Assembly: GCA_027625095.1 (NCBI GenBank)
Contig: JAQBXN010000005.1
Span: forward strand, 22,959 to 86,958
DNA from: Planctomycetota bacterium
GTDB lineage: Bacteria; Planctomycetota; PUPC01; JACPCR01
Direction of reading: 5' to 3'
Length of the DNA stretch: 64,000 nucleotides
Of the stretch, positions 5,909-41,515 are shown piece after piece. Every line of letters begins with the position of its first letter. Positions within the stretch are counted from its first letter, which is position 1. The notes below the pieces were generated by a model. That model was given only the letters and a program-made list of their open reading frames with translations, made no database searches and was not told the DNA's origin. The position numbers and the translations under genes were made by a program.

Positions 5909-8900
5909 TTACCGCTGTTGAACCTTGAGGGCCAACACATCGTGTTTGGGAAGTTTCACAGCGAATCGTTTCAGAAAATCTGTCGATACTGACTTCTGCT
6001 TGCCAATAACCGAGGTCCGAAACTCTTCTGGCTTCTGCATAGAAACACCGATCATCTCGTAATTGCCTTCCGGCATGTGCACACCGACCTCAACGGATGC
6101 CTCGGCGCCCCAATTGAGAAGAGCGATGAATTTCGTTCGGGAATCTATTTCGAGGAGATGGGCCTCGACGTTGCTTCCGTGGGAAAGAAACAACATCGGC
6201 TTCCGGTCGCCAAGAAGTTTGTCTATGTTTGCTCGAAGGCGACTAATAAACTTCGGATCCGTTTCCGCATCCACCCAGTTCTCCTCAAGGCAAACTACAT
6301 CGCCGTTTGCCTGGCCGGTCTTAATCAAGTTTTGCAGAGCGGGCCCTTCATGAACAACACCAAGTTCGTCTACCTCGCCTTGCTTTTGTCCAATGAGAAA
6401 CTTCTTGCCTGACGACCGCGCTTGGGCAAGCAATCCTGCTACTTCTTTACTGACTGAATAAGGAAATGGCAGAATGAGTAAATCGTATTTAGCAGCCTCT
6501 CGAACCTGTTCGACGTGGTCGAGATAGTAGAGGTCGAATGAATAGCCGTTCCTGAGCAGAAACTCGTTGATGAACCGGCTCGACCAGAATCCCTGCTTCG
6601 CTTTTGGATTCCATCCAAGCCAGTAGGTGCCATTCAAGTTGTCCCACCAGTCTTCGGATGCGCGAGAGGTAAGGAGCGCGATACTGCGCGGCGGGCGAGC
6701 CCGGCGGATGCCCCAGCGTTCCAATGATTGAATAAATTTCAATCCGCTCTTGATGGAATCTGTTTTTTCCCAAAGCTCGATGTAGTTGTAGCGGTAGTGA
6801 TTGATTATCGACGCCCCTTGAAAGATGCCACTGATGACCCCAAGCGTACCATCGATGCCCACGCCATCCATCACGGTCGCCTGCCTGTTCTTGGACGCCG
6901 CAACAAAACGCCTGGTCTCCTGTGGCTGATAATCAGTGCCCATGTAATCCACGCTGGAGACATGACCAATCAGATCATAAGCAAGTCCGTAGGTCATGCG
7001 GTTGTTCCCTGAAACCGCTCCAGATCCGATGTTCAAAAGAGTTATGCATTTCGGATTAATTTTCTTAACGATCGCCTGCCGGCGTTTAAGCGCTTCCCCT
7101 GCTCTCTCATAATTCGAAAGAACATGCCGCCTGTAGTTCACCGATTGTTCCCAACCGTTGGGCAAATCGGCGTCCGGCCCCCACCGCTTTCGAAACTCAG
7201 CCCGGCTTGGATGATCTTCAGGAAGTTTCGCTCCACGGGGATTGGCAAGACCGAAAGTGTCTTCGTCCGGCATCAAGTAGACCCCATCCACACCGCGGGT
7301 CGCGACCTCTTCGCAGAGCAATTCGTAAGCGTCCTGGCCTTTCGGGCCAATATAGGTCTCGTAGATATCAGGACGAAACAGCACGAATACCTTCAATCCC
7401 TGCTCATGCGCGCCTTCCGTAAATTCACGCAGAAGATCCCGACCGATAGGAACCTTGATTTCAGGCCTGGGTTTCTCTGGCTGTTCCACATCTTCTTGCA
7501 CTTCATCATCGAACTCGTCCAGCTTCTCATTCTCATCTGTAAGCTTTTCGCCGACCTGAGGAAGCCCGGCCTCTTCAATCTTTTTGTAATAATCAGGATT
7601 GGTGATCGACTTGAAATTCTTACTGGGCCAGAAAGCTTTTGGGTCGGCCTCAATGAACAGCGTCATCGTATCCGCGCCCAGCTCCTTTACGCCCTCCAGC
7701 AACTTCTTAAAAGGGGCATGCGCCCGAATGTCCACTTTCGGCAACTGGTTCTCGTGAATGCCTGCCATCCAGAGATCCACCATGACGCTTTTGAGGATCT
7801 GTGTCGCTGCTGTTGGCTCTGGTAACTGAAGCTTCACCACCTCACCGAATTCAATCCACGGAGTTGACTCTGGAATTTTGGACTCGGGTCTCTGGTCCTT
7901 GGCGAGACGTTGGTAGGTCTCTTCATCTGAATAGATCTCTATCTCACGAATATCCGGATAACTCTTTTCCCATCCCCGCTGGCCCTGGAACGCACGAAGC
8001 TTCAGGCGATACAGTGGCGTCGTTTCAAAGGAAAGCTCTTGCCAGGCATTCGGTGCTCCATCGGCCGCATACACCAGAGCCTTGTCATACTTGCCGTCAT
8101 TCGTGGTATCAGCGTAAAGAAAATATTGAATGGCGAACAGGCCTCCCTGGAGGAAACGAACTCGCGACACCGAAACGGGCTGAGTGAATGTAAAGTCATA
8201 ATTTCCTCCGAGACCGACACCTGTTCGGAAGGATGCGACTGTTGCTTCGTCACCATCGACCAGGTTTCGAATACACATCCCGGTGGATGGGTGGGAGTGA
8301 ATACGGGAAGCAAACCTGGCGATATTCACCCCACTCCCCCGCGCCCCCGAATCTGGCTCAAGCACTTTTATTAAGAGTGCCGAGATTTTCGCCTTTTCCA
8401 GACGTGGCTCGTCTTCTCCCGGACCGACCTCATTTTCCAGTTCTGCGTCCGGGTCGTCCGATTGTTCTGTGAAGGGTTTGCCATCCAGTAGAAGGGCGCC
8501 CCCTTTGATTTGCAGACGGCTGGCTGGGGTCTGGACCGAAAGGCTGCCAGCGAAAGGACTCTGTGCCGCCACAAGTCCGAGGGCCGGATCGGTTCGTTTC
8601 TTCACAGGTGGATAGAAATAACGCCCCTCAATTTGAAATACCTTGTCCTTGTCGTGCAAATAGAGCCTGAACGGTACATCCGGTTTGCCGATGATTGTTC
8701 CGTGGTTGCTGACCAAGTCACGACAGGAACGGGATGGCTGGTATGTTTTCACAATGAGTTTTTCCTTCGGGTCAAAACGCCATTCCGGCGTCCTGAGGCC
8801 GAAGACAAGTTTTTGACCCTCTGATAGGTCCAGAAAGTTTCTTGCCTGAACCTTCAGGCCCGTGCAGTACAGGTCTCCGTTGGCTTTGACCTTCCCACCA

Positions 8901-9727
8901 GGCTTGTCAAGCATCAGCGGGGGAAGAATTCCCTGGGCTGCAATTTGTTGATCGCCCTTTCCCACCATACGTACCCATCCGGTGGACGCCTGGAGTTGCC
9001 GATGAGAGCCATCGCTCTCTATCGAGCCGTGCAGTTGGATGTCACCGATTAATGTGACGGCCGACAATGAAGGTTTACCGCGGAACAACAGGTCTCCCCG
9101 GATGCGCAATACCTGCTCAGCCTTTATCAGGAGGTGACCGCCACTTAGCATGACAGAGCCTTCTACCTCCGTGCTTTCCTCTATCGTCACACTATATGGA
9201 TAAACGGAAGGATGCAGCGTCAATGAACCAAAGATCACTCCTCCGGTTTTCAGTGATATCGATGGGTGTTTGCTATCAATGCTGAGAGCCGGTTTACCCC
9301 GGACCGTTCCCTGATTAGAAATTTGGCCCCGGCCAATAATTACTTCCGAAGTTGCAATTGAAGCATCGAGAAAAGCGTCTTTCTCGATATATAGGCCGGC
9401 CTCTGGCTGGTTGGCGCCGACCTGGTCGTAGTCGATCCTTGAGGACGTCGCTATTCTGACTTTGTGTCCGCTCAGATTCAGCCAGGCTTTTGAGCGAATC
9501 AAGAGCTTTCGATCCACTTCCCCATCGCTGCTCAGCGTCGGATAGTTTTCCAGACCAGCAGGAATGACCACATCGCTACCATCCGATAGCCTGGGCACAG
9601 AACCACTCGACCAGTTCGAAGGCTCGTGCCAGTCAGAGGGCCGTTCTGGATGCGTGCCTTTCCAGTTGTTCGACTCGGCCTGAATCGCGGCGCACAGAAT
9701 GATGAGGTGTTGAATGAATCGTCGCAC
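5909..9727 (-). CDS. Large exported protein: N-terminal beta-helix-like region + discoidin/F5-8-type-C-like domain + GH-like TIM barrel with GH42-middle-domain-like C-terminus (paralog of 10507..13161)
   Basis: 1272 aa with signal peptide MRRFIQHLIILCAAIQAES. Discoidin-like block: NLVDGDEATVASFR...VSVSRVRFLQGG...YPDIREIEIYSD. Motifs shared with the 884-aa paralog: DLWMAG, RGVDGVYLMPDE, SRASEDWW, YDLLILPFPYS. Confidence 0.6.
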   Translation of the reverse strand: MRRFIQHLIILCAAIQAESNNWKGTHPERPSDWHEPSNWSSGSVPRLSDGSDVVIPAGLENYPTLSSDGEVDRKLLIRSKAWLNLSGHKVRIATSSRIDYDQVGANQPEAGLYIEKDAFLDASIATSEVIIGRGQISNQGTVRGKPALSIDSKHPSISLKTGGVIFGSLTLHPSVYPYSVTIEESTEVEGSVMLSGGHLLIKAEQVLRIRGDLLFRGKPSLSAVTLIGDIQLHGSIESDGSHRQLQASTGWVRMVGKGDQQIAAQGILPPLMLDKPGGKVKANGDLYCTGLKVQARNFLDLSEGQKLVFGLRTPEWRFDPKEKLIVKTYQPSRSCRDLVSNHGTIIGKPDVPFRLYLHDKDKVFQIEGRYFYPPVKKRTDPALGLVAAQSPFAGSLSVQTPASRLQIKGGALLLDGKPFTEQSDDPDAELENEVGPGEDEPRLEKAKISALLIKVLEPDSGARGSGVNIARFASRIHSHPSTGMCIRNLVDGDEATVASFRTGVGLGGNYDFTFTQPVSVSRVRFLQGGLFAIQYFLYADTTNDGKYDKALVYAADGAPNAWQELSFETTPLYRLKLRAFQGQRGWEKSYPDIREIEIYSDEETYQRLAKDQRPESKIPESTPWIEFGEVVKLQLPEPTAATQILKSVMVDLWMAGIHENQLPKVDIRAHAPFKKLLEGVKELGADTMTLFIEADPKAFWPSKNFKSITNPDYYKKIEEAGLPQVGEKLTDENEKLDEFDDEVQEDVEQPEKPRPEIKVPIGRDLLREFTEGAHEQGLKVFVLFRPDIYETYIGPKGQDAYELLCEEVATRGVDGVYLMPDEDTFGLANPRGAKLPEDHPSRAEFRKRWGPDADLPNGWEQSVNYRRHVLSNYERAGEALKRRQAIVKKINPKCITLLNIGSGAVSGNNRMTYGLAYDLIGHVSSVDYMGTDYQPQETRRFVAASKNRQATVMDGVGIDGTLGVISGIFQGASIINHYRYNYIELWEKTDSIKSGLKFIQSLERWGIRRARPPRSIALLTSRASEDWWDNLNGTYWLGWNPKAKQGFWSSRFINEFLLRNGYSFDLYYLDHVEQVREAAKYDLLILPFPYSVSKEVAGLLAQARSSGKKFLIGQKQGEVDELGVVHEGPALQNLIKTGQANGDVVCLEENWVDAETDPKFISRLRANIDKLLGDRKPMLFLSHGSNVEAHLLEIDSRTKFIALLNWGAEASVEVGVHMPEGNYEMIGVSMQKPEEFRTSVIGKQKSVSTDFLKRFAVKLPKHDVLALKVQQR

Positions 9728-9769: not shown

Positions 9770-10465
9770 CTACCCGGGGAACTCGATTCTTACCTCATCA
9801 AGCATGAGGTAACCCTCTGGAAGCCGACCACGCCAGACAGGATAATCCTTCTCAGGTCTCAGGATGTGCGGGTCACCTTCGATTGGCCCCATGGGTACCA
9901 CATCCAGCGGATAGAGCACAAACAGGATATTCGCATTGGCATCGCCCATAACGGTGGCCAACGGCGTGTGGCCATAGAAATCGGCACGGTCGTGACGACT
10001 TCCGAGACAGGTCCATTGTGTTTCGTCCGGCACACAGACCACAGTCTGGTTGGTCCACTCTTCGGTAACTGCGAACGCCTGCCCTGTGAGAATCCACCCG
10101 GTGCAAATGCCATTATGCACTCCCTGACAGAGCAAATGCAGTTGAGTGCCATGCTCCAACAATTCTCCCTTCAGGCGGAGCGTGATTCGTGCATGGGTAA
10201 AGTCAGTTCCAAATCCACCGGCGATATAACGATTCGTCCCTGCGATTTCTCTCTGGTGTTCGCCCGCAGTACCACTTGTAAGCAGAATATAGGGCAAATG
10301 CATGTAACCGGCCCCGGGCGGGGCATGGTTGTAGTCAATCCACCAGGGACTACGCGAGATGGCGCAACTGTCACTGATATCCAGCGCCTTTGGCCCCTGT
10401 GAATTACTGATCCAGCCAGTCCATCCTCCGGGTCCGTTATCAAAGTTTTCGAGATATGTCTTCAT
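9770..10465 (-). CDS. Hypothetical protein (no signal peptide, no recognisable family)
   Basis: 231-aa ORF, co-directional and tightly spaced (41-42 nt) between the two large paralogs. The composition is protein-like. The overlapping 258-aa plus-strand ORF (9626..10402) looks like a shadow ORF. Confidence 0.5.
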   Translation of the reverse strand: MKTYLENFDNGPGGWTGWISNSQGPKALDISDSCAISRSPWWIDYNHAPPGAGYMHLPYILLTSGTAGEHQREIAGTNRYIAGGFGTDFTHARITLRLKGELLEHGTQLHLLCQGVHNGICTGWILTGQAFAVTEEWTNQTVVCVPDETQWTCLGSRHDRADFYGHTPLATVMGDANANILFVLYPLDVVPMGPIEGDPHILRPEKDYPVWRGRLPEGYLMLDEVRIEFPG

Positions 10466-10506: not shown

Positions 10507-13161
10507 TTAATTGCCCTGAATTCGTAACAGCTTTATCTCACCGGGACTCAAACCGATATTGAAACTCAGAAGACTGCCTGCACCCACGGCAGCTTTTCCA
10601 CCAACCAGACCACTATGGAGAGCGATATTTTCTCTAGTGCCTTCCTGTGAACTGCAGACCATCACGCTGTAATCCCCCTGCGGTAAAGGCAAACCAACAA
10701 GGGGCTGGGCACTGATAAGACGCTCCATGTTCCCCAGATAGAGAAGGTATTCCTTATCACTCAGCTTACGTGCCCAGTAGCGAACGTCGGCCCCGTTGGG
10801 GTTGAAGCTGTTCGCTGAATTCAGCAGCCGCCGAATCAGAACCAAATTCTCACCCTTCACCGTTCTTGATGACCAGTCTTTCATGAGGTCACTCTCGACG
10901 TGGGTTACATTCTTGTGGCCCACCAACGATGTCAGAAGAGGTTCTGGATGGTTCTGGCCATACTCGTCAGTGGGAGCAAGGAGATCGTAAATCAGTAATT
11001 TCGTGCCGGCTTCCACGGCAACCCTGATGGCTTCAAATGTCGCTTTGGGCATCGAGTAGCTGAAGGGCAGTATCAGCAATTTATATCTTCCGATTTCCTT
11101 AAGCGTCTCAGGTCGCTCTGAATACCGAACGTCATATTGAACTCCATTCGGCTTCAGTAGCTGCTCTATATATTGATTCGAATACATCCCCCGAAATCGT
11201 TCGTACTGATAATGCCGCACACGGGCGTCCGGTGTGAAGGTCTTGCGGGTCTTACTCCAGACAACGGCAAGGTCTTTAGGATCCATAAAGAGAAGATTCG
11301 AATCCTTTGAATTGATGTAGTCCAGAATTTTCGTATCCGCAGACACCTGCCACCAGTCCTCTGAGGCTCTGGAAATGATGACGCAAGTTTCTGCGGCGCT
11401 CTTGCTCTCGCACAACCCCCACTGCTCCAGCAGACGTGCCATCTTGCAAGTCTTAGTCACCGTCTGCCAATAGGGCTCCATGTAGTTAAGGCGATACATA
11501 TTGATTTTCGTGCAACCATTCATCAACAGTTCCATGAAGTAGTCTTGAAAGATGATTGGGAAATCTGTTGCGCCACTCGTACCAAGCGTCTGAATGCTGC
11601 CGAAACGCACTTTGTCTGGAAAGGCTGCCTCGGCCCGTTTGGGATCGCCACTGTAGACCTGTACTCCCGTGAAATTTTCCTGCGCGCCCATAATGTCCGC
11701 GGCAACACCATGTTCCATTCGGGTGTTTGACGGAAAGTACAGATTCGGGCAGCAGAGCAATTCGAGGTCGGGTTTCTTCTCCTTCAGTTTTCCAGCGATC
11801 TCGTTGAACATCTTTGCCAGCCGCGTGTACTCAAAGGTCTTCCACTTGCGGTAATGTTCGTTATCCGCCGCTTTACCGGGCAGGTTGTCATAACCAAAGT
11901 CAGCTTTGAAACGATTGGTGCAATCGGGGCAGTCAGTTTTCGGTAAATAGTGCCCTTTGTAATAGTACTCATCAGGTAACACGTAGACCCCATCGATGCC
12001 CCGGTCGACCACCTCACTTAAGAGAGCAAGCCAGTTACTTTGGAAATGATCGTCGGAAATAATGCATGGATACCGAACCTTGTATTTGTCTTCCAGACCC
12101 TTTGTAAAAATGAAATCCGACTGCTCATAGGGATAGTCCCACCGGCAGTACGGCATGGGCGCCCGCTGGTCTTTCTTCTGAAGAGGTGCAATCCAGGCGT
12201 GCATGAAGATGTAGCTTTTCAATCCATGTTTATGCAGGGCATCAATGAGCACCTTCATGGGCTCGTTGTCAAGATGCGGCCCGATCTTGCTCTTCCACGG
12301 CAACGTATTTTGGCTGTTGTAGGTTTCCGGAAATATTCGGACGCCCGTGGCATCGATTTCCTGAAGCTGCCGAAGCAGTCTTTGGAAACCAGGGGACTGC
12401 TCAAAATTTTTGAGGTCTTCCCTGCCGTAGACCATCCCCGCCATCCACAGATCAATGCAGGGTGTGATTTCGATTTTCTTCGGCCCTGACGCCGGCAATG
12501 GTAACTGAGGGCCGAGCGCTATTTGGCTACGAGCTGTCTCCGGCTTCGGAGACGGCGGGCTCGCTACTTTTTTGTCTGTGTAGATTTCAATTTCGTAATA
12601 CTGGGGATAGCTCCGCCGATAAGGTGGCTGCCCGTCCAGAGCAACAAATCGAAGACTTCGAATCGATTGTTTTACCGGAACCGTTATCCATTCTTCTTGC
12701 TGGTTCGGTTGCTCTGGGAAATTGAGTTTCGCAATTTGCTTGTCGAATTTGTCCGCCGATTCCCCCCCGGCGTTGATCTCGAGGACAGAGGCGCCCTCCA
12801 GGACGAATCGGACCTCGGTGACGTGAATCGCATCGCCAAAATGAAATTCAACCGTGCCCCCGATCTCCGGCCCCGAAGCGCCACGTGCACCCGTTTTTGG
12901 ATCGCCATCCGCCAGGCTGCGCAGCTCCGAATCCGTCAGATAAGGGACAGCGTTCACATCAGCGAGATTCAGCCAATCAAGCTTGTATTGGCGGGACCAC
13001 GCTTCTCTTTCAGCGTGCACAAGTCCCCCTCCACCCCATACCAGACAAACAAAAGATAGGCCGATAACCGCATGTAATTTCATAAGACGATGCCTGAAGA
13101 GCCTGGAAGCTGAAACTTTCGAAGGCGCTACATATTCGGTTCGGACAATATTCACGAACAT
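10507..13161 (-). CDS. Exported discoidin-like domain + GH-like TIM barrel protein (paralog of 5909..9727)
   Basis: 884-aa ORF. The likely true start is ATG 13083 (MKLHAVIGLSFVCLVWGGGGLVHA signal peptide). Discoidin-like block: VEFHFGDAIHVTEVRFV...YPQYYEIEIYTD. Shared motifs: DLWMAG, RGIDGVYVLPDEYYY, SRASEDWW, YKLLILPFSYS. Confidence 0.6.
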   Translation of the reverse strand: MFVNIVRTEYVAPSKVSASRLFRHRLMKLHAVIGLSFVCLVWGGGGLVHAEREAWSRQYKLDWLNLADVNAVPYLTDSELRSLADGDPKTGARGASGPEIGGTVEFHFGDAIHVTEVRFVLEGASVLEINAGGESADKFDKQIAKLNFPEQPNQQEEWITVPVKQSIRSLRFVALDGQPPYRRSYPQYYEIEIYTDKKVASPPSPKPETARSQIALGPQLPLPASGPKKIEITPCIDLWMAGMVYGREDLKNFEQSPGFQRLLRQLQEIDATGVRIFPETYNSQNTLPWKSKIGPHLDNEPMKVLIDALHKHGLKSYIFMHAWIAPLQKKDQRAPMPYCRWDYPYEQSDFIFTKGLEDKYKVRYPCIISDDHFQSNWLALLSEVVDRGIDGVYVLPDEYYYKGHYLPKTDCPDCTNRFKADFGYDNLPGKAADNEHYRKWKTFEYTRLAKMFNEIAGKLKEKKPDLELLCCPNLYFPSNTRMEHGVAADIMGAQENFTGVQVYSGDPKRAEAAFPDKVRFGSIQTLGTSGATDFPIIFQDYFMELLMNGCTKINMYRLNYMEPYWQTVTKTCKMARLLEQWGLCESKSAAETCVIISRASEDWWQVSADTKILDYINSKDSNLLFMDPKDLAVVWSKTRKTFTPDARVRHYQYERFRGMYSNQYIEQLLKPNGVQYDVRYSERPETLKEIGRYKLLILPFSYSMPKATFEAIRVAVEAGTKLLIYDLLAPTDEYGQNHPEPLLTSLVGHKNVTHVESDLMKDWSSRTVKGENLVLIRRLLNSANSFNPNGADVRYWARKLSDKEYLLYLGNMERLISAQPLVGLPLPQGDYSVMVCSSQEGTRENIALHSGLVGGKAAVGAGSLLSFNIGLSPGEIKLLRIQGN

Positions 13162-13172
13162 GTGTACTCAGT

Positions 13173-15095
13173 TTACTGGCCGAGTTTTTGAGCAAGCGCA
13201 GCCAGACCCTTAAAGAAATAGAGCAGTGTAAGAGAGGCGATGATGAAGACGCCGACCACCGCGAAGTAGAAGAATGTGCTTCGCCCTTTGAATGACTTTG
13301 TCCAGGCCTCGACCAGTTGAGGGTCTTCGTTGCGAAGCTCGAACATCTGGGCTGATTCTCCTTCCAGGCCGGCGACAGGCGAAAGAGCGGTGACCTTTCC
13401 GAAGTAAATTGGTTTGCCTGCAGCATGACAGTCCGTGCAGCCATTTACACCGAGCGATTGCGCTCCCGGCCGGACATCGTGAGCGAAGGCCCAGGTATAA
13501 GGCGCCGCAGCGGAATGGTCTGAGCTCACAAGAGTTTCATTGCCCGCTCTGTGAACTTTGCCAGCCGTAACATAGACCACTTCACCCTTCTCAACACTTT
13601 TCTGAAGCTTGCTGATGATTTGCGAAATCTGCTTCTGATCGGGGAGAGTGGCCTCCTCCTTCATGGACTTTTTTTCTTTCACGATGCCCTGGCCAGCATC
13701 TCTTACGTCCTCAACCGCAATTGGCTTCAGCACGTCTCCGTCGAGAGTTCCGAAGTAGGCGGGCCAGATCATTCGGTGCGGAGTAATTTTCTCGGATTCA
13801 TCTCTAAGAAATGCGGTGCCGGCGATGAGCGGCAGAGCCTGCCGATACCGGGTGGCTATACCAAGCTGGTGGGCCATCGAAGTTTTGAATCCGCCAGCAA
13901 TATGGCCAGGCCATGGCCCGGCATGACACGAGGTGCAGGACATCTTTTCAAGATGCAGAGTGGGCAGCCCTTTATGTTCGGGCCGCGGTGCGGCAAAGCG
14001 CCCGCCCAGGCCCAGGCCCTCTCTGGCTTCGGATTCGCCGAGATGGCATCCCTGGCATGAGAGTGCAGCGGGGGTGGCCGGGTCTCCTTCTATTCCTCGA
14101 TTAATCGCGTGGTCGAGCCCATTGCGATGACAATCGACACATTTCAGACCTGCGGCAATGTGGACGTCCGTATCCGTCTGCCAGTGCGTCTCCTCATGGC
14201 CGGTGCTGATAGCTGTATGGCAAAAGTAACATCGATCATTTGGCGGCGACTTGGTGACATTGAAGAAGAAGCGATCGTTCGCATCGAATTTAGTCTTGTC
14301 ATAGATGACCTGTGGAGGCTTCTGGTCCGGAAAATCAGGATTGGGGCCGGCGAAGGGGTCGTAATCCTCCGGCAGTAATTTTGCCTCGCCCCGCACCATG
14401 GCAAAGTCTGTCGCAGCGGTGGGTGCCCATTTAAAATTCTGTTTTGCAATTTGAACGCCCCATTCCACCGGGTCGTGTCGCTGGTCGGCAGAATGGCAGA
14501 GGAGGCAATCGACTTCCAGGTTGCCGGCGATCATCCAACGAGCGAGGAGATCTTCCTTATCCTTGTCACGCCTCTCCCCCACCCCGCTGCCAGGCATGTG
14601 CCTGCCGAATTCCTGAATGAACTTCCAGTATGTCAGCCCGACGTCTTCCGGCCGGAATGTGTTTTTCCAGCCGCGGTAACTTAATGGAATTTGAGTCCCT
14701 GTCGGTTCATCGACCAGAATCCACGGCTCGCCTGGCCTGCCGTGGTTCACGTCTTTGTCAGCAGCGTTGAAGTGCCAGCCTTTGTGGATCAGACCATAGG
14801 GATGGCATTTGCCGCAAGTATGGGATGGAGAGTAAGGCGGCGCCTTTTGATCTGATGGAGAGATGGCCGTGCCGCCCTCATCGTAAAGAGTAATGCGATG
14901 AACGAACCGAGAGCGGCTGTCAGTTTTTAGAAATTCGACCTCTGAATGCGCTGAGGTCAGGAGCAGGAGACAGAGGCCGGACAGGAGTGACTGAGTAATG
15001 GAGTGATGGAGTGAAGGGCTGGAATTTCGATGATTCCCAGGCCCGTCAGCGGATACCCGATCCTCTTTTCCTGCTACACATTCCTCCGCCATCAC
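13173..15095 (-). CDS. Membrane-anchored heptahaem c-type cytochrome
   Basis: 640 aa. Seven CXXCH motifs: CGKCH, CLLCH, CYFCH, CVDCH, CQGCH, CTSCH, CTDCH. Hydrophobic signal-like N-terminus (LLSGLCLLLLTSAHS) and C-terminal TM helix (FFYFAVVGVFIIASLTLLYFF). Its start region (GTG 15093-15095 / ATG 15090-15092) overlaps the stop codon of the upstream gene. Confidence 0.85.
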   Translation of the reverse strand: MMAEECVAGKEDRVSADGPGNHRNSSPSLHHSITQSLLSGLCLLLLTSAHSEVEFLKTDSRSRFVHRITLYDEGGTAISPSDQKAPPYSPSHTCGKCHPYGLIHKGWHFNAADKDVNHGRPGEPWILVDEPTGTQIPLSYRGWKNTFRPEDVGLTYWKFIQEFGRHMPGSGVGERRDKDKEDLLARWMIAGNLEVDCLLCHSADQRHDPVEWGVQIAKQNFKWAPTAATDFAMVRGEAKLLPEDYDPFAGPNPDFPDQKPPQVIYDKTKFDANDRFFFNVTKSPPNDRCYFCHTAISTGHEETHWQTDTDVHIAAGLKCVDCHRNGLDHAINRGIEGDPATPAALSCQGCHLGESEAREGLGLGGRFAAPRPEHKGLPTLHLEKMSCTSCHAGPWPGHIAGGFKTSMAHQLGIATRYRQALPLIAGTAFLRDESEKITPHRMIWPAYFGTLDGDVLKPIAVEDVRDAGQGIVKEKKSMKEEATLPDQKQISQIISKLQKSVEKGEVVYVTAGKVHRAGNETLVSSDHSAAAPYTWAFAHDVRPGAQSLGVNGCTDCHAAGKPIYFGKVTALSPVAGLEGESAQMFELRNEDPQLVEAWTKSFKGRSTFFYFAVVGVFIIASLTLLYFFKGLAALAQKLGQ

Positions 15096-25362: not shown

Positions 25363-27141
25363 TCAGAAGAAGACCACACGCTGCGCTTCTTCAAGAGTGG
25401 TTATCTGTGCCTGCATCTTCTGGGATACGTCGTCGACCAGTGTCTTCATCCCCTCATCTCGGGCCAGCGTTCGAATCGAAGAGTCGGACTCTCCCTTCAG
25501 GATCAGTTGCTTGAGGGCATCTGATACGATCAGCACCTCAAAGATACCAACACGGCCCTTGTAGCCGGTCTGATTGCATACTTCACAGCCACCCGGCCGC
25601 TTGATGACTACCGCTTCCCGGCCGCCCATATCCACAGTCAGGCCTTCAAGTTCGAGCGCTGTAGCTTCATAGTCCTGGGAGCACTTGACGCAGACGCGAC
25701 GAACAAGCCGCTGGGCCTGAACTCCAACGAGGGACGAAGCAACCAGAAACGGCTCGACCCCCATATCGACCAGACGGGTGACTGCACTGGGGGCATCATT
25801 AGTATGCAAGGTACTGAGAACCAGATGTCCGGTGAGGGATGCCTCAATGGCGATCTTCGCGGTTTCCGTATCGCGAATTTCACCCACCATGATGATGTCA
25901 GGGTCTTGACGAAGAGCGGCTCGCAGACAGGCGGTAAACGACAATCCACCGCGTTCATTGATTTCAGCCTGGGTAATACCTTCGACCTGAGTTTCCACCG
26001 GATCTTCCACCGTCAGGATATTATTGGCGGGGGTATTGACCTCATTGAGACAGGCATAGAGCGTCGTTGACTTTCCCGAGCCGGTTGGGCCGGTAATCAG
26101 AACTAATCCGTAAGGTCGTTTGATGGCACCCCGAATGCGGTCCTCATTTTTCTTATCAAAACCGAGCTGATCAAGTGTGACAATTTCGTCTTTATGCTCC
26201 GCCACGCGCATCACGATTTTCGATCCGCCTACAGAGGGCAACACAGACACACGACATTCAAACGCGCGGTTTCCGATTTTTACAGACATACGCCCGTCCT
26301 GCGGACTCATCCTGTTGGAGAAATCCAATCCGGCCATCACTTTGATACGGGCGGCGACGACCCTCATAAGACCGCGGGGAACCTGCGTGCCATCCTGAAG
26401 AATTCCATCCACTCGATACCGAACCTGCAGACGATCTGATTCCGGTTGAAGGTGGATGTCGCTTGAGCCCCTGCGAATACCTTCAGTAAGGATGGAGTTC
26501 ACCAGCTTGATAACTGGCATGTCATCAACACCGGTAGCCTGATTGCTGATCTGATGGACATCATCTGCATGTCTATCTTCGACGATGATCCCCATTTCCT
26601 CGGCTTTGTGGAGGACGTTTTGCACTTCCTCATCGGATTGCTTTTCGATAACGCTTTCTTCGTCCTCGTCCATCCCGATGCCCCAGAGCTCCTTATATTT
26701 TTCTCCCAGCGCAGCTCTCGAAACCACCATCGGACGGATGTCGTAGCCCGTGATCAGCCGCACTTCATCGAGCACATCCACTTTCAAGGGATCGAGAATG
26801 CCACATGCCAGAATGCCACCTTTAAGCTGCAACAGCAGGATACCTGCCTTCCGCTGATAACTGGCTTCTACCAACTCCACAACACTTCTGGAGATCTTGG
26901 AATGTCGCAGATCGACGAATGGCAGCCCCCACTGAACACTCAGGCATTTGGCCAGCTCTTCCTCGCTGATCGCGCCATCTGCTACAAGTTGCGCGCCTAA
27001 CTGCAGGCCGGATTCGAGGGAATGCTCAATCGCATGCTTGATCTGGGAATTGGTTACTTTTGTGTATTGAGCAATGATCTCCCCAAGCTTACGGGGATCC
27101 GCACGAGTGATGTGCGTCTTGTGCATCTCCCTCGCTGGCAT
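25363..27141 (-). CDS. GspE/PilB-type secretion/pilus assembly ATPase with N-terminal T2SSE_N (MshEN-like) domain
   Basis: 592 aa. Walker A GPTGSGKST. Asp and His boxes (VGEIRD, LVLSTLHTNDA). Tetracysteine motif (CVKC...CEVC). The N-terminal GSPII_E_N-like repeat contains LGAQLV...ISEEELAKCLSVQWGLPFVDL. Confidence 0.9.
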   Translation of the reverse strand: MPAREMHKTHITRADPRKLGEIIAQYTKVTNSQIKHAIEHSLESGLQLGAQLVADGAISEEELAKCLSVQWGLPFVDLRHSKISRSVVELVEASYQRKAGILLLQLKGGILACGILDPLKVDVLDEVRLITGYDIRPMVVSRAALGEKYKELWGIGMDEDEESVIEKQSDEEVQNVLHKAEEMGIIVEDRHADDVHQISNQATGVDDMPVIKLVNSILTEGIRRGSSDIHLQPESDRLQVRYRVDGILQDGTQVPRGLMRVVAARIKVMAGLDFSNRMSPQDGRMSVKIGNRAFECRVSVLPSVGGSKIVMRVAEHKDEIVTLDQLGFDKKNEDRIRGAIKRPYGLVLITGPTGSGKSTTLYACLNEVNTPANNILTVEDPVETQVEGITQAEINERGGLSFTACLRAALRQDPDIIMVGEIRDTETAKIAIEASLTGHLVLSTLHTNDAPSAVTRLVDMGVEPFLVASSLVGVQAQRLVRRVCVKCSQDYEATALELEGLTVDMGGREAVVIKRPGGCEVCNQTGYKGRVGIFEVLIVSDALKQLILKGESDSSIRTLARDEGMKTLVDDVSQKMQAQITTLEEAQRVVFF

Positions 27142-27293
27142 CTCAATCCCTCCATCTCTTCAAATGATTCATAATCTGAACTCGTATGCTTCTTACTCTA
27201 ACATATGTTCTGCATCAACAAACGCAGGTGCAGATTCGGTCACTTATTATATTCTGGCAACACGCAACCACCCTTTTATTTTCAGGAGACAAT

Positions 27294-27527
27294 ATGAAAC
27301 TCAGTATCGAATACTGCATGCAGTGAAACTACGCACCTAAAGCTGCCAGTATGGCAGAAGCACTTATGGTCGAGTTTAGAAAAGGTTTCGAATCGCTCAC
27401 CCTGATTCCCAGCGGCGGAGGCTGCTTTGAAATCAAGGCAGGCAACGAGCTCCTCTTCAGCAAGCTCAAGGAAGATCGGTTTCCGGAGGCGGAGGAAGTT
27501 AAGGAGCTGATTCGAGCGAAACTGTAA
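27294..27527 (+). CDS. SelW/Rdx-family selenoprotein (CxxU) with in-frame UGA = Sec at 27324-27326
   Basis: AGGAGA (27284-27289) then ATG 27294. Read-through translation: MKLSIEYCMQ-U-NYAPKAASMAEALMVEFRKGFESLTLIPSGGGCFEIKAGNELLFSKLKEDRFPEAEEVKELIRAKL, ending at TAA 27525-27527. The IEYCxxU, PSGGGxFEI and SK...RFPE blocks are Rdx family hallmarks. A hairpin lies 16 nt after the UGA and an intrinsic terminator follows the stop. Not in the ORF track because the UGA splits it into pieces under 60 aa. Confidence 0.8.
27343..27357 (+). promoter_or_regulatory. Candidate bacterial SECIS hairpin
   Basis: CTGCCA-GTA-TGGCAG is a perfect 6-bp stem (or a 5-bp stem with AGUAU loop) starting 16 nt downstream of UGA 27324-27326, inside the coding frame. 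A lower stem with bulges (27336-27342 / 27363-27369) is possible. Confidence 0.5.
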
Positions 27528-27553
27528 ACATTGAAAACAGCTTCCGAAGTACG

Positions 27554-27594
27554 AAAGGCCGTCCCGGTACAACACCCGGGCGGCCTTTTTCTTT
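27554..27594 (+). terminator. Rho-independent terminator of the selenoprotein gene
   Basis: AAAGGCCG(T)CCCGG - 8-nt loop - CCGGGCGGCCTTT, followed by TTTTTCTTT. About 10 G-C pairs with one bulge. Lies 27 nt after the TAA. Confidence 0.75.
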
Positions 27595-39268: not shown

Positions 39269-41515
39269 CTACTGTCCATCCATATATAGGTCAGGTACGG
39301 TCCCGGTCTCTGCATCCAGGCCAATACCAAAACTTCGGAAACCGAAATTCTGATGGTCTCTGGCGGGCGTGAGCCATGTCTTGTTGTTGCCGGATCGAAC
39401 AGACGGCTCGGTTGCATCCTGAGCGACCTTGTCCAGGTATTTATCATCCCCGCCGATATCGAGGAGCAAGCCGATCGAGTTTCCGTACAGGCTGTAAGGA
39501 CCATATTGATACGCAGGCGCAGCATAAGATTGAAGGAAACTGGCCTCACCGAATCCTGCACCGTTCTTGCCCAGTACGTAGGTGTCGTTTCCACCGATAT
39601 CGATCAGGAGGGCATTCGAGCGAATCTGGGCGTTGCCGATGCTGATACGATTGGCCTCGTATCTGTCGTCCCCCCCTTTGGCGATCAGGAGCGCTACGGT
39701 GAAGTCCCAACCAAAGGCCAGGCCGGCCCCTGAAGTCTCACGCAGGACGTGTTTATCATTCCCACCCTCATCAATGATGACCCCGATGGCAAAGTGCGCG
39801 CCCGACGCCTGAGTAAAATAGACGCTCGTATATGTGTCATCGCCGTCCCCATCATAAAGAATACCCGTGCCGAACCAGTAACCGGTTCCGATAGACCAGT
39901 TTCCTGATTCGTACTTGTCATTCCCGGCGATATCAATAAGCGCGCCCAAACCTCCTGCCCAGGCATGCCCGTGTGAACCGTCCGCCCTCATGCCTGCGCC
40001 ACAGCCCTGCGCCTGGCTGACCGTTATCTTGTTCTCCGAATGGTAATCAGGGCGGCCTGCCTTCGCCGAATCAGGTTCGGCGGTGTAGGTGTCATTACCG
40101 GTGACATTCGCCAGCACGCCGACTCCTCCCGTGCCGCCGAATCCCTGGCCGTCACCGAGAAGATAAAACATGTCGTCACCTGTGGCGTCCAGATGCAAGC
40201 CGATACCGAAGTAGCCGGCCCCCTGCCCAGAGTAACCGAGTGTATACTTGTCATTCCCAGCGTAATCGGCGAGCAAACCAAGGCCGAACAACCCAAAGCC
40301 CTGGGCGCCTTTCCTGGCCTCGTAAGTATCATCTCCTGCGAGATCCAGCAGGACGCCAGCCCCGAAGATGCCCGCACCTTGGGAACTACTCTTCTCCCCT
40401 TCAGTTTTATAAATGTCGTTGCCCGCCAAATCGATAGCGATGGAGATAGGAACATCCAGAGTCGTCGCCCCAACACCGCCACCATAGGTGTCATTGCCGC
40501 CCAAATCGATCACAATTGCTGCATCGGTGGCGTCGTGTTGATCATCGCCTGTTCCCGACAAGAGGACCATGCCTATCGGAGTCGGAATCTTGACTGAAAC
40601 ATCCTTAAAAGCATCAGGATTGGCGGCCACCAATGTTTTCAACTCTCGTCCGGCGTCATGCGCTGCCTGCACCGCCTTTTGCGCTGCGTAATAGAGCGAA
40701 GGTTCGTCAAGATCCTTTGCTACGTCATCGACCTGGTAGGGATAGGCCTGCCCGTCAGAGGAATGGCCGTGGAAATCGCGCATGCTGAAGACGTCTCGAA
40801 GGTGCTCCGCTTTAACATTCCGAAGCGCCAGTTTGCGCCACTGCCAGGCGTCAATGACATTCAACAGTAACGAAGCCACGATAATTTCGAGTTTCGGATC
40901 CATACCTTTTATCTGAAGGCGAATATCTGCTTCATAATCCGGCCAGTCTGCTTTCTTGCCAAAAACGATCGTTCGCATCTTGCCGCCGGACGCATCGTAG
41001 GCGCGGCGAACCGCATCGATGAGTGGCGCCTCCCCTGCCGGCTGAGGGTCGAGATTTGCGCTGTAGCCCCTAAAGATCCCGACCTTGTGGTCGATTCCCA
41101 GGAAATAAACCAACCTGAAGAGGGAATCATTCTTCTTCTCGAACTGCTCAAGCGAAAGCAGATCCCTGACCGCCTGTGACATGACCATGGTAAAGTCATA
41201 TGTCCTCAGCGGTTCGGCAAACAGGGAATCAAAGAAATGGAGCTTATGCGGAACTCGTGACGGATTCGGAAAGCGAGACCAATAGCCTTTCGGATGGAAC
41301 CCAAGGTCATTCTTGGTCAAACCGACGGTCTTTAAAGCCTCTGCCAGTTGGTCTGGCTTCGCCGGTTCGGAACAGAGCTGGGACAGACAAAGTGTCAGGA
41401 GAGTTACCTGTGTCAAGTTCTTCATTTCTGTTACCACCTGTTGGAGGATCGTTTGCAGGCCGATATCGGCCCCTAAATCATTTTGCGCTTGAATCTCGAT
41501 TCTTCTATCTTCCAT
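39269..41515 (-). CDS. Exported repeat protein: N-terminal domain + at least 12 G(N/D)D-x-Y beta-solenoid-like repeats
   Basis: The likely start is ATG 41425 (MKNLTQVTLLTLCLSQLCSEP signal peptide). The repeats run from about aa 318 to 693 of the ORF-track protein: GGNDTY, AGNDIY, AGDDTY, AGNDKY, TGDDMF, TGNDTY, AGNDKY, DGDDTY, GGNDKH, GGDDRY, GGNDTY, GGDDKY. Each is preceded by a Gly-rich GxGxxGxGxLxD segment. Confidence 0.6.
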   Translation of the reverse strand: MEDRRIEIQAQNDLGADIGLQTILQQVVTEMKNLTQVTLLTLCLSQLCSEPAKPDQLAEALKTVGLTKNDLGFHPKGYWSRFPNPSRVPHKLHFFDSLFAEPLRTYDFTMVMSQAVRDLLSLEQFEKKNDSLFRLVYFLGIDHKVGIFRGYSANLDPQPAGEAPLIDAVRRAYDASGGKMRTIVFGKKADWPDYEADIRLQIKGMDPKLEIIVASLLLNVIDAWQWRKLALRNVKAEHLRDVFSMRDFHGHSSDGQAYPYQVDDVAKDLDEPSLYYAAQKAVQAAHDAGRELKTLVAANPDAFKDVSVKIPTPIGMVLLSGTGDDQHDATDAAIVIDLGGNDTYGGGVGATTLDVPISIAIDLAGNDIYKTEGEKSSSQGAGIFGAGVLLDLAGDDTYEARKGAQGFGLFGLGLLADYAGNDKYTLGYSGQGAGYFGIGLHLDATGDDMFYLLGDGQGFGGTGGVGVLANVTGNDTYTAEPDSAKAGRPDYHSENKITVSQAQGCGAGMRADGSHGHAWAGGLGALIDIAGNDKYESGNWSIGTGYWFGTGILYDGDGDDTYTSVYFTQASGAHFAIGVIIDEGGNDKHVLRETSGAGLAFGWDFTVALLIAKGGDDRYEANRISIGNAQIRSNALLIDIGGNDTYVLGKNGAGFGEASFLQSYAAPAYQYGPYSLYGNSIGLLLDIGGDDKYLDKVAQDATEPSVRSGNNKTWLTPARDHQNFGFRSFGIGLDAETGTVPDLYMDGQ

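Follow-up and report, generated by a model that had tools for sequence, protein, structure and literature searches.

A probable SelW-like selenoprotein gene with a putative coding-region SECIS hairpin in an uncultured Planctomycetota lineage

Bacterial SelW-like proteins with a CxxU motif outnumbered every other selenoprotein family in the Sargasso Sea survey, with 48 genes against seven Cys homologues (PMC1088965), and SelW-like proteins are counted among the bacterial selenoprotein families with few or no Cys homologues (PMC1794560). The literature covers both these proteins and the errors in their annotation well (PMC1088965, PMC1794560, PMC13188914). Truncated gene calls at Sec-encoding UGA codons are a recognised annotation problem, which has itself been used to find selenoproteins (PMC13188914), and NCBIfam provides dedicated '(seleno)protein' models for SelW-like CxxU proteins. 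Among the Planctomycetes, complete Sec machinery has been documented in several members (PMC4807772).

The gene described here lies on the + strand at positions 27294-27527 of the window, by which we mean the whole 64 kb stretch of planctomycete DNA that was analysed. It is a real and ordinary small redox-protein gene, a previously unannotated member of a bacterial selenoprotein family that has been on record since about 2004. In our preferred reading, to which we give a probability of about 0.9, it is a complete, single-gene transcription unit encoding a SelW-like protein of 77 residues with a Cys8-x-x-Sec11 motif, in which a UGA codon is recoded to selenocysteine.

The reading frame and its surroundings

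The coding sequence runs from ATG 27294 to the TAA stop codon at 27525-27527 and comprises 77 codons, with Sec at codon 11. When the TGA is read as U, the full product is MKLSIEYCMQ-U-NYAPKAASMAEALMVEFRKGFESLTLIPSGGGCFEIKAGNELLFSKLKEDRFPEAEEVKELIRAKL, which continues after U as NYAPKAAS and ends in IRAKL. The in-frame UGA, the likely selenocysteine codon, occupies 27324-27326 and closes the CxxU redox motif at 27315-27326 (TGC ATG CAG TGA, C-M-Q-U). By direct reading, a Shine-Dalgarno-like AGGAGA is found at 27284-27289, 4 nt 5' of the ATG, and its AGGAG core is also present in two orthologue lineages (L007 and L012). The first-pass annotation had placed the AGGAGA, ATG, TGA and TAA at exactly these positions, and its translation is identical to ours letter by letter. 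It had also stated that only an out-of-frame ORF is listed here. This is correct for a length cut-off of about 60 amino acids or more but not below it, as the mechanical ORF list contains, besides the out-of-frame ORF 27074-27340 and an antisense ORF 27282-27575, two in-frame pieces at 27186-27326 (46 amino acids) and 27351-27527 (58 amino acids). Neither the upstream in-frame ATG 27186 as the real start nor the antisense ORF as a real gene was retained: in homologues, stops interrupt both the upstream extension and the antisense frame. A scan of the whole window for other CxxU or UxxC read-through candidates returned only off-frame noise apart from the codon at 27324. The C-M-Q-U codons are crossed by a perfect 12-nt palindrome, ACTGCATGCAGT, at 27313-27324; it is restricted to the window's own clade and absent from distant homologues, and is probably due to chance.

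An intrinsic terminator was located at 27553-27594 (+) both by folding and by a pattern scan; it has a G+C-rich stem, GGCCG(U)CCCGG...CCGGGCGGCC, and then a U run. Its minimum free energy (MFE) is -30.9 kcal/mol (z = -4.78; none of 200 shuffles was as good), and its stem shows compensatory changes in L007 and L012. The strong terminator that had been proposed 3' of the TAA is thus well founded, and together with the Shine-Dalgarno-like sequence it bounds a monocistronic gene, in agreement with the earlier description of a complete transcription unit. A σ70 promoter scan upstream of the gene detected none. In the 5' region common to the divergent gspE-like gene (27223-27283), a conserved block ACGCAGGTGCAGATTC...TTATATTCT is seen in three orthologue lineages. 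This block may be a non-canonical promoter or operator, as is suggested by the negative σ70 scan.

The neighbours are those named in the first-pass annotation: a gene with MshEN and T2SSE domains (GspE-like) upstream on the minus strand and, downstream, an ORF with a weak match to PF03417 (C45 peptidase/AAT). One of the Logan assemblies from this organism (L004:7505-9283) has the gspE-like gene split into pieces of 420 amino acids (T2SSE) and 160 amino acids (MshEN), owing either to misassembly or to a disruption at the strain level. When neighbouring genes were clustered across all loci, recurrent neighbours were obtained within the Marinimicrobia/Fidelibacterota clade only, and the one with a Pfam match is a FecR-domain protein. 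No partner gene recurs from phylum to phylum, and the surroundings of the gene therefore offer no clue to a substrate. The Pfam content of the window includes DUF1570, DUF4838, many GFO_IDH_MocA domains, PhyH and PEGA/FHA, and DUF1573 occurs in the orthologous locus L007. This content, taken with a best-scoring homologue from Pirellulales (see below), points to Planctomycetota. Three ORFs on the minus strand have no Pfam match at E <= 1e-5, namely 5909-9727 (1272 amino acids), 10507-13161 (884 amino acids) and 39269-41515 (748 amino acids), the first two of which form a same-strand run with a multihaem cytochrome-like ORF at 13173-15095.

Family membership and conservation of the UGA codon

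With U written as C, the read-through product matches Pfam Rdx (PF10262) with E = 1.2e-21 and 77.1 bits (cutoff 22.6) over profile positions 2-73 of 74. The 58-residue piece alone reaches 46.9 bits, which is also above the cutoff, over profile positions 19-73 only; the 18 N-terminal residues, which include the CxxU motif, therefore add about 30 bits. The product also passes NCBIfam TIGR02174 (CXXU_selWTH) with 65.2 bits (cutoff 34.2), while its 83.7 bits against NF041051 (SelTWH_Campy, a Campylobacter-type equivalog) fall just under the cutoff of 88, so that it is close to this equivalog but not a member. Membership of the Rdx family (SelW/SelT/SelH-like), as first proposed from the sequence, is borne out over the full length. 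Solved Rdx structures, comprising the bacterial entries 3dex, 2fa8, 2ojl, 2p0g, 2obk and 2oka and human MIEN1 (2ljk), also align full length (E = 9e-12 to 4e-6), and a thioredoxin-like fold is predicted for the product. The CxxC of the solved homologues (IEYCTQC in 3dex, IRYCTQC in 2fa8) aligns on C8-M-Q-U11.

A scan of 185,579 species-representative genomes yielded 80 loci, and 84 loci were examined overall. The 80 loci come from Planctomycetota (Gemmataceae, Pirellulales), Neomarinimicrobiota, Fidelibacterota, Chloroflexota, Actinomycetota, Verrucomicrobiota and Bacillota, the last including the cultured Desulforamulus putei and Aneurinibacillus tyrosinisolvens. All 84 have CxxU or CxxC at the motif position. 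The codon at the Sec position is TGA in 77 loci and TGC in seven, all of the latter belonging to a single clade (Tepidiformaceae/Dehalococcoidia). This agrees with the expectation that the second redox residue of the family is Sec or Cys, here at one and the same codon. The window's own species was not among the genomes recovered by the scan; the closest relative in the genome collection is 52-58% identical, and the best-scoring homologue comes from a Pirellulales MAG. The syntenic orthologue lineages L007 and L012 show 85-90% amino-acid identity to the window copy, have the same gspE-like and C45-peptidase neighbours, and retain the ATG, the TGA and the terminator. At about 50% identity the TGA is still retained behind a conserved N-terminus (IEYC-TH-U-NY, IVYC-DD-U-NY). 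Conservation of the ten codons 5' of the UGA, a check proposed with the first-pass annotation, thus extends from the orthologous to the distant loci.

Among the stops of the 47 long ORFs of the window, TGA is the commonest (23, compared with 13 TAG and 11 TAA), which argues for site-specific recoding at codon 11 rather than an altered genetic code. Domains of SelA, SelB and SelD and a tRNA-Sec were sought in the 64 kb window and in 10 kb on each side (about 84 kb) and none was found, a result that says little for the whole genome. Within the window, ARAGORN found no tRNA and Rfam at gathering thresholds gave nothing relevant. In a Verrucomicrobiota MAG (L097), a tRNA-Sec (ARAGORN; Rfam RF01852, 65.7 bits) lies no more than about 90 nt downstream of a homologous CxxU gene. 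The order in L097:10001-13922 is rdx(U), tRNA-Sec (10311-10408), selA (11289-12950; PF03841, E = 1e-116) and a Transglut_core gene (12957-13922). The same association, a transglutaminase-core gene in a Sec operon, is reported from a planctomycete (PMC4807772). The L097 cluster ties the gene family to Sec decoding and so lends indirect support to the present case, in which the host organism presumably decodes UGA as Sec.

Public copies of the scaffold exist as ENA ERZ23495043 scaffold_168 (132.9 kb) and as several Logan and JGI contigs; further sequence from this organism occurs in JGI 3300004369 and in the runs SRR217001xx. Their gene calls give the 58-residue piece every time, or a 53-residue piece in an orthologue, which is what had been anticipated of standard callers (a 58-codon piece from ATG 27351), and the 77-residue gene is absent from every public record found. 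At L014:1311-1541, and likewise at L015-L017 (P0004-P0006), the public calls show W at the Sec position (IEYCTHWNY) where the DNA has TGA. These calls are an artefact of code-4 (TGA=Trp) gene-calling models on short marine contigs, and such mis-annotation disguises selenoproteins as apparently full-length proteins.

A putative SECIS hairpin downstream of the UGA

The hairpin that the first-pass annotation had noted after the UGA is indeed present and conforms to the published description of bacterial SECIS elements. Its core at 27343-27357 (+) consists of a 6 bp stem, CUGCCA/UGGCAG, with arms 27343-27348 and 27352-27357 and a GUA loop (A-GU-A-U), and lies 22 nt after the UGA. The bSECIS model (PMC13188914) specifies an apical loop of 3-9 nt with a G in its first two positions, an upper stem of 4-16 bp, a spacing of 16-37 nt from the UGA and an MFE <= -7.5 kcal/mol. 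The window hairpin agrees with this model, having a loop of 3 nt starting G-U, a stem of 6 bp and a spacing of 22 nt; the energy is -7.1 kcal/mol for the core hairpin and -13.5 to -16.1 kcal/mol (MFE) for the full post-UGA region. Among shuffled versions of the window sequence, about 1% produce a qualifying hairpin of the same quality, and folding the post-UGA region as a single sequence gives modest z-scores (-1.25 to -1.65). A search of the region around the gene at E <= 10 returned no Rfam family for the hairpin.

The MFE structure suggests that the core may be part of an extended SECIS with an additional lower helix (27326-27377), the value of -16.1 kcal/mol being obtained for the 67-nt stretch 27324-27390 and again for the 60-nt stretch from the UGA. 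The extended form is tentative because the register of its lower helix is not conserved across phyla. It overlaps a near-invariant block of DNA in the three orthologue lineages, which is considered further below.

Support for a SECIS comes from comparison of the loci and is much stronger than that from single-sequence folding. In a gap-free alignment of the 77 TGA loci, 75.7% of the cells in helix columns 18-25/29-36 are paired, compared with 17-50% in controls in which the 3' partner was slid. Covariation scores 0.319, as compared with 0.154 +/- 0.012 for shuffles, and none of 500 shuffles reached the observed value. RNAalifold alone recovers only three pairs, 21-33, 22-32 and 23-31, which belong to the same helix. 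Pair 21-33 occurs as CG, GC, GU, UA and AU, while pair 23-31 is CG, UA or UG and is broken in none of the 77 loci. Columns 21 and 33 are both four-fold degenerate third positions, and they pair in 62 of 71 cases where 29.3 would be expected (permutation p < 5e-5). The choice of codons is equally restricted: the serine in the loop has an AGY codon throughout, never UCN, and the following codon (residue +9 after Sec) is almost always NUG. Residues +7 and +10 after Sec, corresponding to columns 22-33 (window 27345-27356), covary as A/A (43), V/T (15), V/A (12, with a G-U pair) and I/M (2). These patterns are not explicable by protein constraint. That a SECIS within a coding sequence constrains the protein is a principle already known, of which the 77-locus comparison is a clear illustration.

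A qualifying hairpin is present in all 77 TGA loci, with a spacing of 21-22 nt in 61 of them. In the seven Cys loci a hairpin in a common register was sought and none was found. One of them (L091:10031-10081, Tepidiformaceae) contains an 8 bp hairpin, CGCCCAGU-GGAU-GCUGGGCG, at the 22-nt SECIS spacing that is absent from the other six; it may represent what is left of a SECIS where Sec was replaced by Cys.

The near-invariant block corresponds to nucleotides 1-81 of the coding sequence, from the ATG to the end of the hairpin region, and is 98.8-100% identical across the window and its two orthologues, whereas the remaining 150 nt are 81-87% identical. Fisher's test of the block against the rest gives p of about 4e-5 for the window versus each orthologue and 0.002 between the two orthologues. 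In principle, these first 81 nt could act beyond the SECIS as a selenium-responsive translational switch that couples initiation to selenium supply: the UGA is only 30 nt from the start codon, and an extended structure or SelB bound nearby could link initiation to selenium. The selAB genes of Escherichia coli, which are regulated by a SECIS-like element, offer an analogy. We nevertheless consider such a switch unlikely, since the portion of the block 5' of the UGA is conserved only marginally above expectation.

Decoding of the UGA and comparison with known systems

Three other accounts of the locus have to be weighed against Sec insertion. In the first, the UGA is a true stop, the true product is the 58-residue protein from ATG 27351, and the upstream part is a ten-codon leader or non-coding. 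It has the backing of all public gene calls and of the Pfam score that this piece attains by itself, yet it is highly improbable. The piece is without the redox motif and the domain start, and the AUG at 27351, the start used by the gene callers, sits within the SECIS core with no Shine-Dalgarno-like sequence 5' of it (AAAGCUGCCAGU-AUG). In most homologues this codon is moreover Leu (UUG in 31, CUG in 23) and not Met, whereas the ten codons before the UGA (M-K-L-S-I-E-Y-C-x-x) show protein-level conservation across phyla, and their Met and Shine-Dalgarno sequence recur consistently.

In the second account, the locus is a pseudogene, a Cys-type Rdx gene in which TGC has mutated to a TGA nonsense codon, so that no full-length product is made. 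Cys homologues do exist, both as the seven TGC loci and, with CxxC, among PDB structures; no Sec genes occur in the scaffold sequence of roughly 84 kb, and the Sec trait of the host is one that we infer. Nevertheless, a nonsense mutation is hard to reconcile with a TGA that is retained in 77 of 84 loci from many phyla as well as in three diverged orthologue lineages. Coding constraint is evident on both sides of the TGA, with more synonymous than non-synonymous changes downstream and a fully conserved N-terminus, and the covarying SECIS hairpin follows the TGA in TGA loci only. Judged by these comparative data, a pseudogene is effectively refuted and its residual probability is slight. The third account, that the UGA encodes a standard amino acid, either Trp or Gly through a reassigned code (tables 4/25) or Cys or Trp through near-cognate read-through without Sec machinery, can appeal to the public calls with W at the homologous TGA (P0004-P0006) but is scarcely credible, as TGA terminates 23 of the 47 long ORFs under a standard code, homologues without the TGA have Cys at this position in every case, never Trp or Gly, and a covarying SECIS-type hairpin would be pointless for plain read-through.

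The in-frame UGA thus most likely encodes selenocysteine, a reading drawn from sequence comparison, and the selenoprotein interpretation of the first-pass annotation is supported by the conservation of the UGA, the Rdx matches and the covarying SECIS. We propose that the UGA at codon 11 is recoded as follows. The mRNA hairpin 22 nt downstream, with G-U in its small apical loop, would act as a bacterial SECIS and recruit SelB-GTP-Sec-tRNA(Sec) to the ribosome as the UGA enters the A site. The resulting protein is likely to be a small thiol/selenol oxidoreductase that would cycle via a Cys8-Sec11 selenenylsulfide. The outcome is mainly a correction of annotation: the catalogued 58-residue fragment is wrong and should give way to a CxxU selenoprotein of 77 residues. 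If this call is right, an uncultured lineage of Planctomycetota uses selenocysteine, and the gene could serve as a starting point for finding its other selenoproteins.

Compared with the E. coli fdhF-type SECIS and the bSECIS consensus (PMC13188914), the window hairpin is likewise a stem-loop directly 3' of the UGA in which G-U opens a small apical loop, and its spacing, stem length and energy are all within the ranges of the bSECIS model (PMC13188914). Its sequence is unrelated to that of the fdhF element, its loop is of 3 nt, or of 5 nt with the A-U closing pair open, and SelB binding is a prediction. The eukaryotic proteins SelW, SelT, SelH, Rdx12 and MIEN1 (2ljk) belong to the same Pfam family and have the CxxU or CxxC motif at the same position. 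Their SECIS elements are of a different type and lie in the 3'-UTR, whereas the SECIS of the window gene would lie within the coding sequence, as is usual in bacteria (PMC1088965, PMC13188914).

The solved Cys-type Rdx proteins 3dex (SAV_2001), 2fa8 (Atu0228), 2ojl, 2p0g, 2obk and 2oka are homologous over the full length (E = 9e-12 to 4e-7), with their CxxC on the CxxU of the window protein. They differ in having Cys for Sec, in being about 25-30 residues longer (103-108 amino acids), and in carrying W or L at the position of the A-S-(L/M)-A codons that, in the Sec forms, also encode the SECIS. The closest resemblance is to the bacterial SelW-like proteins. Like these, the window protein belongs to the size class of about 75-80 residues and has the N-terminal (I/V)-x-Y-C-x-x-U motif, the PSGGG-x-FE core and the SK...RFP(E/D) tail; like theirs, its gene has a SECIS-type hairpin with a G in a small apical loop just 3' of the UGA; and here too Sec forms are far commoner than Cys forms. 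We see no substantive difference from this family, the window copy being one that comes from an uncultured lineage.
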